This document shows, piece by piece, positions 6,393 through 50,779 of a DNA stretch of 54,823 bases. The DNA comes from Patescibacteria group bacterium (GTDB lineage: Bacteria > Patescibacteriota > Minisyncoccia > Phycocordibacterales > UBA1006). Both the position numbers and the translations under genes were made by a program. The stretch's first letter is position 1. Every line of letters begins with the position of its first letter. Below the pieces are notes generated by a model, which was not told the origin of the DNA, made no database searches, and saw only the letters and a list, made by a program, of their open reading frames with translations. The stretch spans positions 1 through 54,823 of the forward strand of contig JAQBQS010000005.1 in the NCBI GenBank assembly GCA_028286885.1, read 5' to 3'.

Positions 6393-6737
6393 TCACAGAA
6401 GTTCTTTAAGAAACTTGTTCAAAATGTCTATTTTTTCTTGCTCTGATTTAATCTGGTCTTCCTTTTCGGAAATAGTCTCTTTCAGGGATTTTGAGAATGC
6501 TTTCTTATTCGAATTGAAATACGCGAGATGATCATAGCTCAGAAATTTTTTCAGCTTTGATAATTCAAAATCTTCTTGTATACCTTTGGAGTTCATCGTC
6601 GTAACCATATTTTCTTTAGAAATTCCGATGATGAAGAAGTATTCCGGATTGGAGGGAGTTCCTTGTGGAGAATAGTATATGCAAGCATAGTACTGTTTCT
6701 TTTTAAAAGCTTTTACACTTGTTATTTGTTTTTTCAT
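6393..6737 (-). CDS. Hypothetical protein, C-terminal coiled coil
   Basis: 114-aa AT-rich ORF with its own promoter and terminator. Confidence 0.65.
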   Translation of the reverse strand: MKKQITSVKAFKKKQYYACIYYSPQGTPSNPEYFFIIGISKENMVTTMNSKGIQEDFELSKLKKFLSYDHLAYFNSNKKAFSKSLKETISEKEDQIKSEQEKIDILNKFLKELL

Positions 6738-46620: not shown

Positions 46621-47253
46621 TTATAATAATCTCAATCCCATTTTGACGAGAATCAAGATTCCCAATATGCCGAGCAATGCGCCCGTAACGTAATTGATCG
46701 CCTGAACGATCGCATGTCTGTTTTTCTTGCGCAGATAATGGATCACATTTCCAACAGCCAACCAGAACAAGAGTGTTCCAATCGGTATCGCGATGATAAA
46801 TACAAGCGTACCCACGAAATTAATTGGTGCGCCATGAAAAATTTTGCCGAGGATTGTGAAGACGAGAGCGAACCCAAACAGCATTACGGGATTCAAAACA
46901 TTGATGATAAATGTCGAGGTAATATCCTGGATCGGATGTTTTTCCGTCTCGTCATCGTCAAGTGAAATCTTTTGCCGCATGGCACGGATGCCGATCCATA
47001 CCAATACAAATCCTGCTCCAAGTTCCGTATAGGTCGAAATGGAAATGAGGAAGGCCTGGATGCGATGCAGGCTGAATCCGACGACAACTGCATAAAATAC
47101 ATCTGAGAGCGCTGCGCCAAGACTTGAAATAAGTCCCGATATCCGGCCAAAAAGGTAGAACCTCCGAATGATGATAAATCCGACCGGACCGTAAGGAAGG
47201 CCGAGTGCGATACCTGCCACAAGTCCTAAAAGAAATAAAATAAGAATATGCAT
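46621..47253 (-). CDS. LysE-family translocator
   Basis: LGLPYGPVGFIIIRR..G..SGL..LGAALSD, INVLNP. Confidence 0.85.
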   Translation of the reverse strand: MHILILFLLGLVAGIALGLPYGPVGFIIIRRFYLFGRISGLISSLGAALSDVFYAVVVGFSLHRIQAFLISISTYTELGAGFVLVWIGIRAMRQKISLDDDETEKHPIQDITSTFIINVLNPVMLFGFALVFTILGKIFHGAPINFVGTLVFIIAIPIGTLLFWLAVGNVIHYLRKKNRHAIVQAINYVTGALLGILGILILVKMGLRLL

Positions 47254-47311
47254 AAGTATGGTCTATTATATCGTATTTTGATACAAGTGTGCTATATTCT
47301 TCGGACAAAAC

Positions 47312-47398
47312 GGAGGCGTCGCATAGCGGTCTAGTGCACCACCTTGGAAAGGTGGCAAGGTGTCAAAACCTTCGAGAGTTCAAATCTCTCCGCCTCCG
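47312..47398 (+). tRNA. tRNA-Ser(GGA); CCA not encoded
   Basis: Acceptor GGAGGCG/CGCCTCC, anticodon stem CCACC-TTGGAAA-GGTGG, long variable arm, GAGAG-TTCAAAT-CTCTC, discriminator G; followed by CCC. Confidence 0.95.
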
Positions 47399-47439
47399 CC
47401 CTAGGTACTTAGTATCGGATGACCCTTAAGGATTAGACT

Positions 47440-48009
47440 TTACTCAATACCAATAAGCTGCCTAAACTCATCTTCAATTTCGACCCTAACTTTTGATGAT
47501 TCATTTTTTGCATGAGCCCATGCCTCATGCCACTTATCAATATCGTGACCATTCCCCGTATATCCCCCCTGCGAAGAAGCCCACTTATTCCATACGAGTT
47601 TAAAATCAGTATTTAGACTATCAATTTTTGATTCAAGTGATTTACTAAAAAATATTTTATTTTCGTCAAAATAGACCAATAGATCATTAGCATTTTTTAC
47701 GAAAACGGCTCTTTTTGCACTAATAGGGTCCTCTCCATTTAACTGTAGCGGAGAAGTCACTGACAGTAGCGAATCGTGCGTTGTAGCTATCTTTTTATAA
47801 ATGTTCTTTATTACATCAGCTCTTTCTGCATGAAGCTTTTCATATGTTATACGAAATTTTTCATTCTCTTTTTCAAGCGATGCCCTATATTGCTCAAGTT
47901 TATTAGAGAAAAAATGATCAGCTATCTTTTTTATTAACCAGACAAAGGCTGGCATTATGACTACCAAAGAACCAATATAAGTTATAAAATTTTGCCAAAA
48001 ATTATCCAT
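47440..48009 (-). CDS. Hypothetical protein, N-terminal TM plus coiled coil (cassette 1 cargo)
   Basis: 189-aa ORF, visibly more AT-rich than the core genes. Confidence 0.7.
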   Translation of the reverse strand: MDNFWQNFITYIGSLVVIMPAFVWLIKKIADHFFSNKLEQYRASLEKENEKFRITYEKLHAERADVIKNIYKKIATTHDSLLSVTSPLQLNGEDPISAKRAVFVKNANDLLVYFDENKIFFSKSLESKIDSLNTDFKLVWNKWASSQGGYTGNGHDIDKWHEAWAHAKNESSKVRVEIEDEFRQLIGIE

Positions 48010-48031
48010 ATGTTTATTGAATCTTAGGGCT

Positions 48032-48637
48032 TTATTTTCTTAGAAAAGATATCACTAGTAGAATGAGTATTAATACTGCCGAAATTCTATTTATCCAAAG
48101 CATCCCATTTTCATCCAGCTTATGCTTAAGCAATCCGACACCGAAGCTGAGAATAAGCCACCAGAATGCTGAACCGACGAATACACCGACAATAATGAGC
48201 GCAGGTGCAAGGTGCCCCGCGGTTGTCGCGATCCCAAGCGCGGCGAATGCCGCGATAAACGAGAATATCGTCATCGGGTTGGTAATTGTGAGGAACACTG
48301 TCGAGAGGTAGGAACCAGCGAGGGTCTTAGTCTGTTTTGAAGAAGCAGATTTTTGCGAAGGCTTAGACAACCAAATCTTTAGCGCAAGATAAAGAAGGAA
48401 AATGCCACCGACGATATGGATAGGCCAACGATATCCAATGAGAAATGATGAGATAGCACTCAATCCAAAAGCTCCAATAAATCCATATATTGAGTCAGCT
48501 GTGGCTGCGCCAAGACCTGAAACAAATCCATGAAGTCGCCCTTCGGAAAGGGTTCGCTGAATACACAAAACGCCGATCGGTCCGACCGGTGCCGCGATAG
48601 AGAATCCCAAGATGATGCCTTTAAGCAGGAAAAACAT
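48032..48637 (-). CDS. LysE-family translocator (cassette 1 cargo)
   Basis: GFSIAAPVGPIGVLCIQRTL..G.GAATAD, TITNPMTI. Confidence 0.92.
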   Translation of the reverse strand: MFFLLKGIILGFSIAAPVGPIGVLCIQRTLSEGRLHGFVSGLGAATADSIYGFIGAFGLSAISSFLIGYRWPIHIVGGIFLLYLALKIWLSKPSQKSASSKQTKTLAGSYLSTVFLTITNPMTIFSFIAAFAALGIATTAGHLAPALIIVGVFVGSAFWWLILSFGVGLLKHKLDENGMLWINRISAVLILILLVISFLRK

Positions 48638-48824
48638 ATAAGTAACCTTATCGTACCATAATCAAGATTTCAGACTAAGACCCGAGTGCCTCAGCTTCCA
48701 TACTAATAATTTCCCGAATAGCCCTTACATGACCTCAATCCCCTGGTACTTAACTCTAGTGGCCCGCCTTAGATACTTAGTATCGGATGACCCTTAGTGG
48801 TTACAATCTGTTACAATACAAAAT

Positions 48825-49253
48825 ATGAGAATAGGATCAACAATTACACCGGAATTGAAAGTTTTCGATTTCCATGAAAGCTTAAACTTCTATACAAATA
48901 TTGCCGGATTCAAAATTCTTTATTCTCGCCCCGAGGAGGATTTTGCCATGCTCGAGATAAGCGGCGCTCGCCTAATGATCGAGGGACTAAGCGATAAGAG
49001 TAGAACCTGGAAGGTTGCCTCGCTTGAAAAACCTCTCGGCCGTGGGATGCATTTCCAGATTCAAGTCGAGGACGTTGATGCTCTGTACAAAAAATTCAAG
49101 GATAATTCATATGCAATTTTTCATGAAATGGAAGACAAGTGGTATCGCAAGAATGATCAGGAGGTCGGCAACCGGCAGTTCCTTGTTCAGGATCCGGATG
49201 GTTATCTGCTTCGATTTTTTGGAGATTTAGGAACTCGTAAAATAGGATTATGA
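48825..49253 (+). CDS. VOC/glyoxalase-bleomycin resistance family protein (cassette 2 cargo)
   Basis: PELKVFDF.ESLNFY, G.R.FLVQDPDGYLLRF. Confidence 0.9.
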   Translation: MRIGSTITPELKVFDFHESLNFYTNIAGFKILYSRPEEDFAMLEISGARLMIEGLSDKSRTWKVASLEKPLGRGMHFQIQVEDVDALYKKFKDNSYAIFHEMEDKWYRKNDQEVGNRQFLVQDPDGYLLRFFGDLGTRKIGL

Positions 49254-49957
49254 AGAATCAATACTTCGGCGACTTCGGAGACTACCAAAAGTTCTCCCTT
49301 CTTAAATACCTGCGCGATGTCGGACAGCTGAACATTACCGTCCACTGGATGAAGACCAGAGACGATTCGAGCAACGATGGCGCGAAAATCAAATACCTTG
49401 CAAACCCGTCTGAATGGAACTCTTTCGATCCCGAGATTTTCACATTCCTCGACAAGCACATCAAGACAAACAAGCGGGATCTCTCGATTTACGAAAAAAG
49501 CTCTCATGCCAAGGATATCAAGTTCATAAATGATCATGTCGAAGATATTACGATTCGTAACAAGTCCATTCAAGGAATAAAGGCTGACAAGAGTTCAGGT
49601 GTTATATTTTTCGACCCTGACAATGGCATCGAGGTGAAATCCACTAATGCGAAAAATCTCCACAAGTACGTGACTTGGAATGATGTTAAATTTGTGTTCG
49701 ATTCAGGCAAAAGTGTTTTAGTTTATCAGCATTTCTCGAGAATGAATCGTGATAAATTTATCAAAGGAAAGCTTGATGAATTCGCCAAGGTCTTCAAATC
49801 TCCTGTTTTCGTAATCCGAGCCAAACATTCGGTATATTTCCTTTTGACCCAGAAGAAACACTCTCTCAAAGTATCAAAATCCCTTAAGATCTACGAAAGC
49901 AACTGGAAAGGTCTGATTACCGTATCCGATCCGAGTGCCTCAGCGAAAGCCAAATAA
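49250..49957 (+). CDS. Conserved hypothetical protein, possible SAM-methyltransferase fold (cassette 2 cargo)
   Basis: MKNQYFGDFGDYQK N-terminus and VIFFDPDNG; ATGA-coupled to the VOC gene; stop lies inside R2. Confidence 0.6.
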   Translation: MKNQYFGDFGDYQKFSLLKYLRDVGQLNITVHWMKTRDDSSNDGAKIKYLANPSEWNSFDPEIFTFLDKHIKTNKRDLSIYEKSSHAKDIKFINDHVEDITIRNKSIQGIKADKSSGVIFFDPDNGIEVKSTNAKNLHKYVTWNDVKFVFDSGKSVLVYQHFSRMNRDKFIKGKLDEFAKVFKSPVFVIRAKHSVYFLLTQKKHSLKVSKSLKIYESNWKGLITVSDPSASAKAK

Positions 49958-50044
49958 AAGTGCCTTATTATCCTTACAAGGCTTCAACCTCCTGATACTT
50001 AAATCCTCATCCCCGCAAACCGAATTTTGATATACTGGACGCAC

Positions 50045-50779
50045 ATGAATCCTGACTTTATTGTTACCTGTCATTCACTCATCGAAGCCTTCAAATCAGG
50101 CAAACTCGGCCAGACGATCATGCCCGAAGATTCGCAACCGGAATTCAAGAACCAAGAAGAACGTCTTGCATATTTTACGTTGCCAATGGCGCTCAACTAT
50201 CAGCGGAACAGCTATACGCTCTGGGAGTCGGCGCTCAAAACCTATCAAGATCCGGAAACGAAAAAGGTTTTCGATCTCGCTTTTTGCGCATCCGCGTCAA
50301 AAGAAGAATTGCAAAAACTTCTAACAAAACACAAGGTCGCGCTCCAGCCAAACAAGCACATCAACACGTGGCAGGTCATCGCCAAGACCGTCGATGAAAA
50401 CTGGGGATCTTTCTCAAAACTTTTTGAAGCGGCGGATAACGACTTTCTGAAACTTCAGGAGATAGTCCAAAAAACTCACAAGAAAGGCTTTCCCTATTTG
50501 TCCGGTCCGAAGATTTTCCATTACTGGAGCTTTATCATTTCGACGTACGGAAAAGTTCCTCTGAAGAATAAGGAATTCATCGATATCGCCCCTGATACGC
50601 ATATTACGAAATGTTCGGTCTTGCTCGGAGTCATTACCGCAGAAGAAGCCGAAACGCTTTCCAAGGAAACAATTTCTGAAAAATGGAGAAGCCTTCTGAA
50701 GGGCTCTGATATCACTCCGATCGACATGCACCCGCCGCTCTGGTTCTGGAGCAGAAACGGATTTATCTATAAACTATGA
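50045..50779 (+). CDS. HhH-GPD / Ogg-like DNA glycosylase-fold protein (putative)
   Basis: YLSGPKIFHYW (HhH-like), IAPDTHI (cf. VDTHV), PIDMHPPLWFWSR. Confidence 0.55.
   Translation: MNPDFIVTCHSLIEAFKSGKLGQTIMPEDSQPEFKNQEERLAYFTLPMALNYQRNSYTLWESALKTYQDPETKKVFDLAFCASASKEELQKLLTKHKVALQPNKHINTWQVIAKTVDENWGSFSKLFEAADNDFLKLQEIVQKTHKKGFPYLSGPKIFHYWSFIISTYGKVPLKNKEFIDIAPDTHITKCSVLLGVITAEEAETLSKETISEKWRSLLKGSDITPIDMHPPLWFWSRNGFIYKL

Follow-up and report, generated by a model that had tools for sequence, protein, structure and literature searches.

How did two small groups of accessory genes come to lie one behind the other at a serine tRNA gene's 3' end in a member of the Patescibacteria? The locus is situated on contig JAQBQS010000005.1 (assembly GCA_028286885.1), of which the whole stretch of 54,823 nt was analysed and is referred to here as the window. 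Two units of 1368 and 1249 bp follow directly on the tRNA-Ser(GGA) gene, and an initial annotation, based on the sequence alone, had regarded them as non-autonomous cassettes that were serially integrated at the tRNA 3' end and depend on an enzyme acting in trans. Recurring ends, varying cassette content, and co-occurrence with a large serine recombinase (LSR) in other genomes support this proposal. The units probably represent two non-autonomous islets, resembling cis-mobilizable elements (CIMEs), which were serially integrated at tRNA-Ser(GGA) by site-specific recombination and depend on an LSR in trans. They are members of a widespread family of islands and very small cassettes directed at tRNA-Ser genes, apparently mobilised by such an enzyme encoded outside the cassettes.

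Architecture of the two units

The units are delimited by three junctions with the core CCGC, beside which the repeats R1 and R2 are found (Table 1). These junctions, the repeats, and the lengths of the units had been described in the initial annotation and were confirmed throughout. The two copies of R1 are identical at 31 of 33 positions over the span considered originally and at 35 of 40 positions over a longer span (47396-47435 versus 48764-48803; spacing 1368), and the exact 23-mer TACTTAGTATCGGATGACCCTTA occurs twice in the window compared to 0 occurrences expected from 100 shuffles. The R2 copies (48666-48767 and 49915-50016) align without gaps at an offset of 1249 and share 63 of 102 positions, with two conserved blocks flanking a divergent middle. 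This offset is the best of all offsets between 46.5 and 51 kb, for which the per-offset maxima have a median of 38 and a 99.9th percentile of 48.8.

R1 measures approximately 35 bp and conforms to the motif CCGC(A/C)-N4-(A/G)TAC-N3-GT(A/T)TCGG-N2-GACC. R2 is approximately 100 bp long and closes with an imperfect copy of the 3' end of tRNA-Ser and CCGC; its resemblance to the tRNA is restricted to the last ~25 nt. At two other loci (L038 and L039), R1 runs directly on into GACCCGAGTGCC, the sequence at the start of the conserved part of R2. Thus, three parts can be told apart in R2, namely a degenerate motif of the R1 type, a spacer, and a stretch like the tRNA 3' end with CCGC. A related right end, the 'Ga' type, follows the same plan in a more compact form (GGACTAAA, R1, a T-arm-like hairpin, and CCCTTAGTCCCCGCA). 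Islands of the Islander type are recognized by an intact tRNA together with a displaced copy of its 3' end, and this combination is present here: the right ends of relatives read CCCTTAGTCCCCGCA where the tRNA reads CCCTTACTCTCCGCA. The resemblance is weaker in the window (..TACTTAAATCCTCATCCCCGC versus ..GTTCAAATCTCTCCGCCTCCGC in the tRNA). A decayed full-length tRNA is not supported as the origin of R2, as the genuine tRNA is the sole match of the Rfam tRNA model between 46 and 51 kb (E<=1).

Each unit carries two genes. The cargo (a LysE-family exporter, a VOC [vicinal oxygen chelate] protein, and two orphans) and the stop codon inside R2 copy 2 agree with the earlier description according to the list of open reading frames (ORFs) and Pfam. 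For the orphans of 189 and 235 aa, neither Pfam, NCBIfam, PADLOC, nor PHROGs yielded a significant match. The absence of a recombinase from both units was likewise borne out, and Pfam detected none among the 41 ORFs scanned in the window. With att-type ends on both sides of these four genes, the units have the structure of CIMEs. Their GC content of 0.40-0.41 compares to 0.47 across the window, which otherwise is ordinary chromosome coding for RNase R, SMC, RNase III, NusB, RNase HII, DnaE, ThrRS, GyrB, transketolase, GAPDH, MscL, and MsrB. The last bases of tRNA-Ser(GGA), ...CTCCGC(C), constitute the B half of the attachment site.

Table 1. Coordinates of the tRNA anchor, junctions, end modules, cargo, and flanking genes in the window
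Feature	Position	Strand	Basis or remark
LysE1, chromosomal	46621-47253		
tRNA-Ser(GGA), anchor	47312-47398	+	Rfam tRNA model, 54.4 bits; ARAGORN gives 47311-47401
Junction 1, core CCGC, attL-type (tRNA end / R1)	47396-47399	+	Read from sequence; family similarity between partners switches at CCGC
R1 copy 1, left-end (P') module of unit 1: C CTAGG TACTTAGTATCGGATGACCC TTAAGGATTA	47400-47435	+	Repeat search; 20-mer recurs in 29 other loci
Unit 1 cargo: 189-aa orphan, predicted N-terminal membrane segment	47440-48009	-	ORF list
Unit 1 cargo: LysE-family exporter (LysE2)	48032-48637	-	Pfam LysE, E = 2.9e-22
R2 copy 1, right-end (P) module of unit 1	48666-48763	+	Degenerate R1-like start (..AGACCCGAGTGCC), spacer, tRNA-3'-end-like stretch (GGTACTTAACTCTAGTGGC)
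Junction 2, core CCGC, attP-like hybrid (R2 / R1)	48764-48767	+	Read from sequence
R1 copy 2, left-end module of unit 2	48768-48803	+	Repeat search
Unit 2 cargo: VOC/glyoxalase-bleomycin-resistance-fold protein	48825-49253	+	Pfam Glyoxalase, E = 3.8e-9; NCBIfam bleO and glyoxalase I weak
Unit 2 cargo: 235-aa orphan	49250-49957	+	ORF list; last 14 codons and stop inside R2 copy 2
R2 copy 2, right-end module of unit 2	49915-50012	+	Repeat alignment
Junction 3, core CCGC, attR-type (R2 / chromosomal DNA AAACCGAATTT...)	50013-50016	+	Four-way R2 alignment: similarity gone directly past CCGC
Chromosomal flank gene, conserved in the candidate phyla radiation (CPR), distal side of insertion site	50045-50779	+	>3400 homologues; PF09171 (AGOG-like DNA glycosylase family) on some

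Recurrence of the ends and cassettes in other genomes

An exact scan of GTDB genomes, JGI metagenome contigs, and viral contigs with the R1 20-mer TACTTAGTATCGGATGACCC revealed 29 other loci, four in GTDB genomes and 25 on JGI metagenome contigs; the viral contigs gave zero matches. The GTDB loci belong to one metagenome-assembled genome (MAG) of the Pacebacteria, two MAGs of the Nomurabacteria, and one contig binned as Acidimicrobiales (a mis-labelled MAG). At all 29 loci the 20-mer adjoins, in a single orientation, either the 3' end of a tRNA-Ser gene or a fragment resembling such an end, which comprises a T arm or T-arm-like hairpin, the acceptor 3' strand, and then CCGCA or CCGCC. With a looser pattern, more than 60 R1-type motifs of uniform orientation were found in the R1 loci. 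Many of these loci share one layout, in which tRNA-Ser is followed by CCGC(A/C), four variable nucleotides, an R1-type left end, and one to few genes, before a right-end module, containing another motif of the R1 type, a stretch like the tRNA 3' end, and CCGC, leads over to the next R1. Only tRNA-Ser(ACT), (GCT), (TGA), and (GGA) serve as anchors, and other tRNA types are unused. As some tRNA-Ser genes are unoccupied and lack R1 (in L004, L041, and the second copy in L011), R1 comes with the insert and is not a feature of the host.

R2 recurs in two other genomes. One of them (L032) carries the closest homologue (86%) of the gene at 50045-50779 and has the same MscL-MsrB-LysE-tRNA-Ser(GGA) context as the window, and past the tRNA it contains two short ORF-less units ending in GCCTCCGCA, an AAA_33 kinase gene, an APH gene, and an R2 homologue that ends in CCGCA. 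This homologue aligns without gaps (nhmmer E = 4e-26, with a profile that includes this copy). The other genome (L040, Taylorbacteria) contains tRNA-Ser(TGA), an SduA_C gene, a gene for a 100-aa protein, a homologue (82%) of the 235-aa orphan, an R2 copy (nhmmer E = 7e-7, with a profile built without this copy), and CCGCA; as in the window, the orphan gene runs into R2. With different cargo in L032, partly shared cargo in L040, and different tRNA-Ser genes, the recurrence of R2 identifies it as a conserved right end. In L040, R2-CCGCA is followed by a hairpin with the flank TGCGGAGGAG, which is complementary to the 3' end of that very tRNA-Ser; this is the DNA that originally lay downstream of the tRNA. 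In L041, a 65% homologue of the 235-aa orphan is found in a run of small accessory genes right after tRNA-Ser(GGA). Hence, two checks suggested by the initial annotation turned out in its favour: R1 and R2 occur elsewhere with different cargo, and the tRNA-Ser(GGA) locus differs in cassette content in a relative, with unoccupied tRNA-Ser sites existing as well. A further relative (L033, 83% by the 244-aa gene) was dismissed for this comparison as uninformative, since it is rearranged and its LysE gene has no adjoining tRNA-Ser.

The breakpoints can be located precisely by cassettes that occur in several contexts. The four R2 copies from three genomes align without gaps up to CCGC and then pass into four unrelated continuations. 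One cassette, consisting of a 201-aa gene and a right end, has at least three different right partners (A CTGG..., A GCAA..., and C ACGA...), and identity is lost directly past CCGC. A 1.2-kb cassette for an LD-carboxypeptidase retains 88-90% nucleotide identity from R1 to CCGC in the presence of three different left and three different right neighbours; it is the first cassette past the tRNA in L011, the second in the array of L021, and located behind another end type in L027 and L030. Two left and two right halves are joined at CCGC in three junctions of L003, and one of these right halves belongs to a serine recombinase gene: it is the 3' end of that gene, and the reading frame runs across the CCGC junction. 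As is typical of elements moved by an LSR, the junctions share only CCGC(A/C), and left and right halves reassort exactly there. These comparative data support genuine mobility of the cassettes as discrete units.

In two stretches of L003 (843-2965 and 6088-6301), the 523-aa serine recombinase gene with inverted repeats of 134 nt (97%) on either side and a perfect inverted repeat of 214 nt were found. All of these repeats end at CCGC and could reflect either an inversion system or a mis-assembly of the MAG.

Several other peculiarities of the arrays were observed. The commonest anchor is tRNA-Ser(ACT) (A34, loop TTACTAA), which was called by ARAGORN and in four cases also by the Rfam tRNA model. 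It is found in L001 (4098-4185), L004 (5784-5871), L008 (6537-6624), L012 (2402-2489), L018 (39-126), L021 (4134-4221), and as two copies 2.5 kb apart in L011 (110-197 and 2597-2684); in some loci (L001, L004) it stands beside a normal tRNA-Ser(GCT). Unoccupied tRNA-Ser genes and distal array ends carry a hairpin (L004 5760-5880 and 6400-6520; L040 6769-6815; L011 2160-2200; array ends of L022 and L013). Because the 3' flank of this hairpin complements the acceptor 3' end, the tRNA end could pair with the trailer into a long stem. Units of 45-170 nt without ORF, each ending in a copy of the tRNA-Ser 3' end (..ctctccgca or ..gcctccgca), were found in L004 (5400-6400) and L032 (3300-3470 and 1530-1575) and look like empty or scar cassettes.

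The ends themselves also show additional structure. Many left ends extend to ~115 nt, where R1 is followed by a perfect hairpin with an arm that copies the T-loop/acceptor of the tRNA (GTTCGAATCCCTTAC...) and by TTTTGGTATACT before the start codon (L011 199-315 and 1412-1528; also cassette starts in L002, L003, and L001). This arrangement looks like a terminator-promoter module. At the right ends, GGACTAA pairs with TTAGTCC over 7 bp, and the variants GGAGTAA/TTACTCT and GGGACTA/TAGTTCC preserve this pairing, resulting in a shape similar to a tRNA minihelix (L008, oriented, 6425-6485; equivalents in L001, L004, L009, L011, L013, L014, L022, and L027). Cargo ORFs often terminate at the TAA inside this GGACTAA-type pairing.

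Large serine recombinases and rival explanations

Among 150 ORFs of the R1 loci, the commonest Pfam architecture (5-6 members) was Resolvase + Recombinase + Zn_ribbon_recom, and this architecture characterizes an LSR family that is very large in Patescibacteria (at least 8000 matches, the best 120 of which show 75-100% identity). In the R1 loci these LSR genes belong to large islands whose cargo is of the defence type; they are located 2-6.5 kb downstream of a junction, and the tRNA is encoded on the other strand. The association was also recovered from the opposite direction. All four long contigs chosen by LSR homology alone (L038, L039, L043, and L045) contain a tRNA-Ser gene directly followed by an R1-type motif, as in a closed genome of the Moraniibacteriota that reads CTCTCCGCA|CTGTATATTTAGTATCGGATGACCCGAGTGCC; the tRNA and the LSR are encoded on opposite strands, with the tRNA 1.5-10 kb away on the 3' side of the LSR. 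The nearest NCBIfam models of these enzymes are CcrB and XisF, with scores far below the cutoffs (99 versus 900 bits for CcrB), and among solved structures the SPbeta integrase YokA is the nearest. The initial annotation had envisaged a tyrosine or serine recombinase co-occurring with R1. The latter was thus found, but tyrosine recombinases were detected neither in the window nor in the fetched R1 loci L001-L033 (XerD search) nor among the 150 R1-locus ORFs (Pfam).

The cargo of the LSR islands includes several anti-phage systems, namely type I restriction-modification with SduA (Shedu), a cyclic oligonucleotide-based antiphage signaling system (CBASS; CD-NTase and Cap15) with AbiJ, and an Hsp70-like/AAA/Mrr cluster. 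The islands with such cargo are situated in L034 (1-7005), L038 (1-9894), L039 (1467-9891), L043 (910-9907), and L045 (9604-18100).

According to the mechanism we favour, conservative site-specific recombination with a crossover in or beside CCGC would have placed the units, one after the other, at the extreme 3' end of tRNA-Ser(GGA). Given this crossover, junction 1 would correspond to attL (tRNA/R1), junction 2 would display the attP order (R2/R1), and junction 3 would correspond to attR (R2/chromosome). R2, as the right end, would mimic the tRNA end, so that with every insertion a new attB-like site would form distal to it, and arrays could grow because of this regenerated site. The enzyme would be an LSR of the family abundant in Patescibacteria, acting in trans and carried by the larger defence islands that have an R1-type left end at tRNA-Ser genes. 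Demonstrated are the repeats, the breakpoint, the return of both end modules with other cargo, the changing contexts of cassettes, and the joint occurrence of the LSR with tRNA-Ser/R1. We infer an LSR as the putative catalyst as well as the exact crossover dinucleotide, and also that both units of the window may still be mobilisable.

Several results weigh against this interpretation. A tblastn search of the 54.8-kb window with five LSRs and XerD gave no matches. The distal end of the LSR islands was not identified with confidence: L039 and L043 share only CGCTTCGCAA behind genes that are not homologous, and ~0.15 such matches are expected by chance. Dyad symmetry about CCGC, which is expected for the site of a serine recombinase, amounts to 10-11 of 22 positions and equals the mean best value of shuffles. 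Moreover, at a distance of 45-85 nt from the crossover the right-end modules hold another R1-like motif in direct orientation, and an LSR attP of ~50 bp leaves this motif unexplained. Finally, the units may be old and fixed, as the R2 copies are only 62% identical, and the sole other assembly of the strain (two Logan contigs of run SRR13312974) has the same arrangement. A symmetry between GGTACTTAA and CTTAGTATC that was found by hand had been considered as evidence for a serine recombinase and was discarded as unreliable, because symmetry around CCGC does not exceed that of shuffles. The two Logan contigs break inside the tRNA-Ser gene (window positions 47330-47339) and overlap by 10 nt, which probably reflects a branch of the assembly graph at the conserved tRNA.

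The rival explanation that deserves most attention, although we regard it as rather unlikely, is that the units are relics that were once integrated in the same manner but now are immobile, with decayed ends, and persist as ordinary accessory genes. The divergence of the R2 copies, the lack of a recombinase in the window, and the unchanged arrangement in the second assembly all fit this view, as does the right flank in the window, which lacks the hairpin known from other array ends. However, both R1 copies retain the 23-mer, and the 20-nt core is identical in distant CPR lineages, which speaks for a recent arrival or for ongoing selection. In R2, the conserved blocks were also kept in four copies from three genomes and in both coding and non-coding settings. 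A second rival accepts mobility but assigns it to a different trans-acting enzyme, either a host Xer-type tyrosine recombinase (compare the integrative mobile elements exploiting Xer, IMEX, and pdif modules) or an HUH Y1 transposase that acts on hairpins of single-stranded DNA, so that the LSR islands would merely share the same hot spot. The recombinase-free units would be compatible with any such enzyme; R1 holds a short palindrome (GATACT T AGTATC), insertion after the fixed tetranucleotide CCGC is reminiscent of IS200/IS605, IS200-like Y1 genes lie near the arrays of L013 and L021, and the directly repeated R1-like motif of the right end is left unexplained by an LSR. Nevertheless, this alternative appears improbable. 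The searched loci and the window contain no XerD-like protein, and Y1 genes are confined to two of ~30 loci, with one copy lacking a nearby R1. Furthermore, the LSR islands have the same R1-type left end directly at the tRNA, and in L003 it is an LSR reading frame that crosses the CCGC junction. Hairpins of the kind used by Y1 enzymes also find no support, since the window R2, the R2-R1 junction, and their complements fold no better than shuffles (z +0.2 to +2.2). The consensus structure of the four R2 copies (-3.6 kcal/mol) contains one weak helix, and the 'Ga'-type junction reaches a z of only -1.47.

Very improbable, finally, is an origin without any mobility, by local tandem duplication or as duplicated promoter/terminator DNA or a duplicated LysE-tRNA segment. 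This idea draws on two LysE genes at similar distances from R1 (143 and 127 nt), one upstream of the tRNA and the other upstream of R2 copy 1, and on the position of R2 copy 1 in a divergent promoter region. Yet LysE1 and LysE2 share just 27% identity, the genes carried by one unit are unrelated to those of the other, and R1 and R2 occur in other genomes beside different or partly shared cargo, with CCGC as the breakpoint; a tandem duplication of LysE and tRNA was rejected on these grounds. R1 and R2 are also not universal downstream elements of tRNA-Ser genes. R2 as promoter DNA was rejected because it contains no promoter-like hit and its orientation to the neighbouring genes is inconsistent in L032 and L040, where the copies are not upstream of a gene that they could drive.

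The Y1 genes mentioned above are of the IS200-like type (Y1_Tnp, 222-225 aa, the size of REP-associated tyrosine transposases, RAYTs) and are found in L013 (1-678 and 10121-10789) and L021 (138-806). A Y1 transposase query matched no ORF of the loci, and Pfam yielded these three RAYT-like genes, which look like bystanders.

Related systems and further observations at the locus

The closest precedents of the proposed LSR-dependent islets are the ssrA islands of Dehalococcoides with the recombinase DsiB, and the staphylococcal cassette chromosome (SCC) elements. The genomic islands at ssrA (ssrA-GIs) of Dehalococcoides are tandem islands at the 3' end of the tmRNA gene, bounded by copies of that end (McMurdie et al., 2011; PMC3146451). 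Their CcrB-like LSR, DsiB, is encoded on the reverse strand relative to the target gene, and 15 islands have no integration module and were discussed as possible cis-mobilizable elements (PMC3146451). In view of these tandem islands, the initial suggestion of an undescribed system cannot be upheld as such. A survey of genomic islands in Patescibacteria makes no mention of tRNA targets, integrases, or recombinases (PMC12455944), and our literature searches found no description of a tRNA-Ser cassette system. The arrays described here share with the ssrA-GIs the tandem order past a tRNA-like gene, the copies of its 3' end, the LSR on the reverse strand, and the many units without integration module. 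They differ in targeting tRNA-Ser, with four isoacceptors (ACT, GCT, TGA, and GGA), instead of tmRNA; in having a core of ~4-5 nt with a degenerate tRNA-like arm instead of an exact direct repeat of 20 bp; in their conserved R1 motif at both ends; in their size, which goes down to 0.7-1.4 kb with one or two genes; and in their patescibacterial hosts.

SCC elements, including SCCmec and the recombinase-less pseudo-SCC, are moved by CcrAB or CcrC at the 3' end of rlmH and form composite tandem arrays. The arrays at tRNA-Ser resemble them in their LSRs (whose best NCBIfam match is CcrB), in the use of the 3' end of a conserved gene, and in tandem arrays that include cassettes without a recombinase. 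However, their target is a tRNA gene and their cassettes are much smaller, and as they score 99 bits against a CcrB cutoff of 900, the LSRs are not orthologues of Ccr. CIMEs of Streptococcus have functional att sites, occur in tandem with autonomous elements, and spread by accretion and mobilization through the tyrosine or serine integrases and the conjugation provided by integrative and conjugative elements (ICEs). Flanking att sites, the lack of genes for recombination and transfer, and a dependence, presumed here, on the recombinase of a neighbour are common to CIMEs and the units studied here. In contrast to the conjugative mobilisation of CIMEs, no conjugation or relaxase genes were seen at the loci analysed.

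The comparison with integrons, which the initial annotation had drawn, holds in outward appearance but not in mechanism. Similar are the small and mostly promoter-poor accessory cassettes, the ORFs that often end in the recombination site, and a pool of cargo common to several lineages. Unlike integrons, the arrays have no IntI, attI, or Pc platform, an attC-like single-strand hairpin is lacking from the sites folded above, and the anchor is a tRNA gene. Every unit also carries two distinct ends of its own. An integron-like array in the strict sense, with a folded attC-like site and an adjacent integrase, is thus not what the locus contains. Islands of the Islander type possess a tyrosine integrase beside the tRNA, and none was found here. 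The insertion after a fixed CCGC matches elements of the IS200/IS605 type (HUH Y1), whereas Y1 genes occur at two loci only and the window ends lack significant hairpins.

Members of the CPR/Patescibacteria have tiny genomes and no cultured genetics, and how they gain and exchange accessory genes is poorly understood. If the LSR-dependent reading is true, a visible share of their flexible gene pool would be accounted for, with defence functions on large islands and small detoxification or efflux genes on cassettes. The signature of a tRNA-Ser end, CCGC, and R1 could be used for finding such DNA in metagenomes, and natural attP/attB pairs together with their integrases could be tried as genetic tools in Patescibacteria. 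Moreover, the principle of SCC and ssrA islands would be extended to a true tRNA target and a near-minimal cassette size. A wider reading is possible but tentative: Patescibacteria might own an integron-like platform built on an LSR, in which cassettes of 0.7-1.4 kb are captured serially at any tRNA-Ser isoacceptor and exchanged across CPR classes via the recombinases of defence islands. In such a platform, a left end of ~35 bp and a right end of ~60-100 bp that mimics tRNA-Ser might regenerate the target with each insertion, and the second R1-like motif and the minihelix-like fold might serve, for example, in the binding of accessory proteins or in transcript processing.

A minor observation concerns the AGOG-like gene at 50045-50779 on the distal side of the insertion site. 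It is 83-86% identical to its orthologues in L032 and L033, whereas the flanking genes for MsrB, LysE1, MscL, and an HhH-GPD protein share just 54-65%. In L032 the orthologue is inverted and abuts a junction ending in ..GCCTCCGCA. Because of this inversion at a junction and its higher identity than the flanks, the gene may itself have moved.

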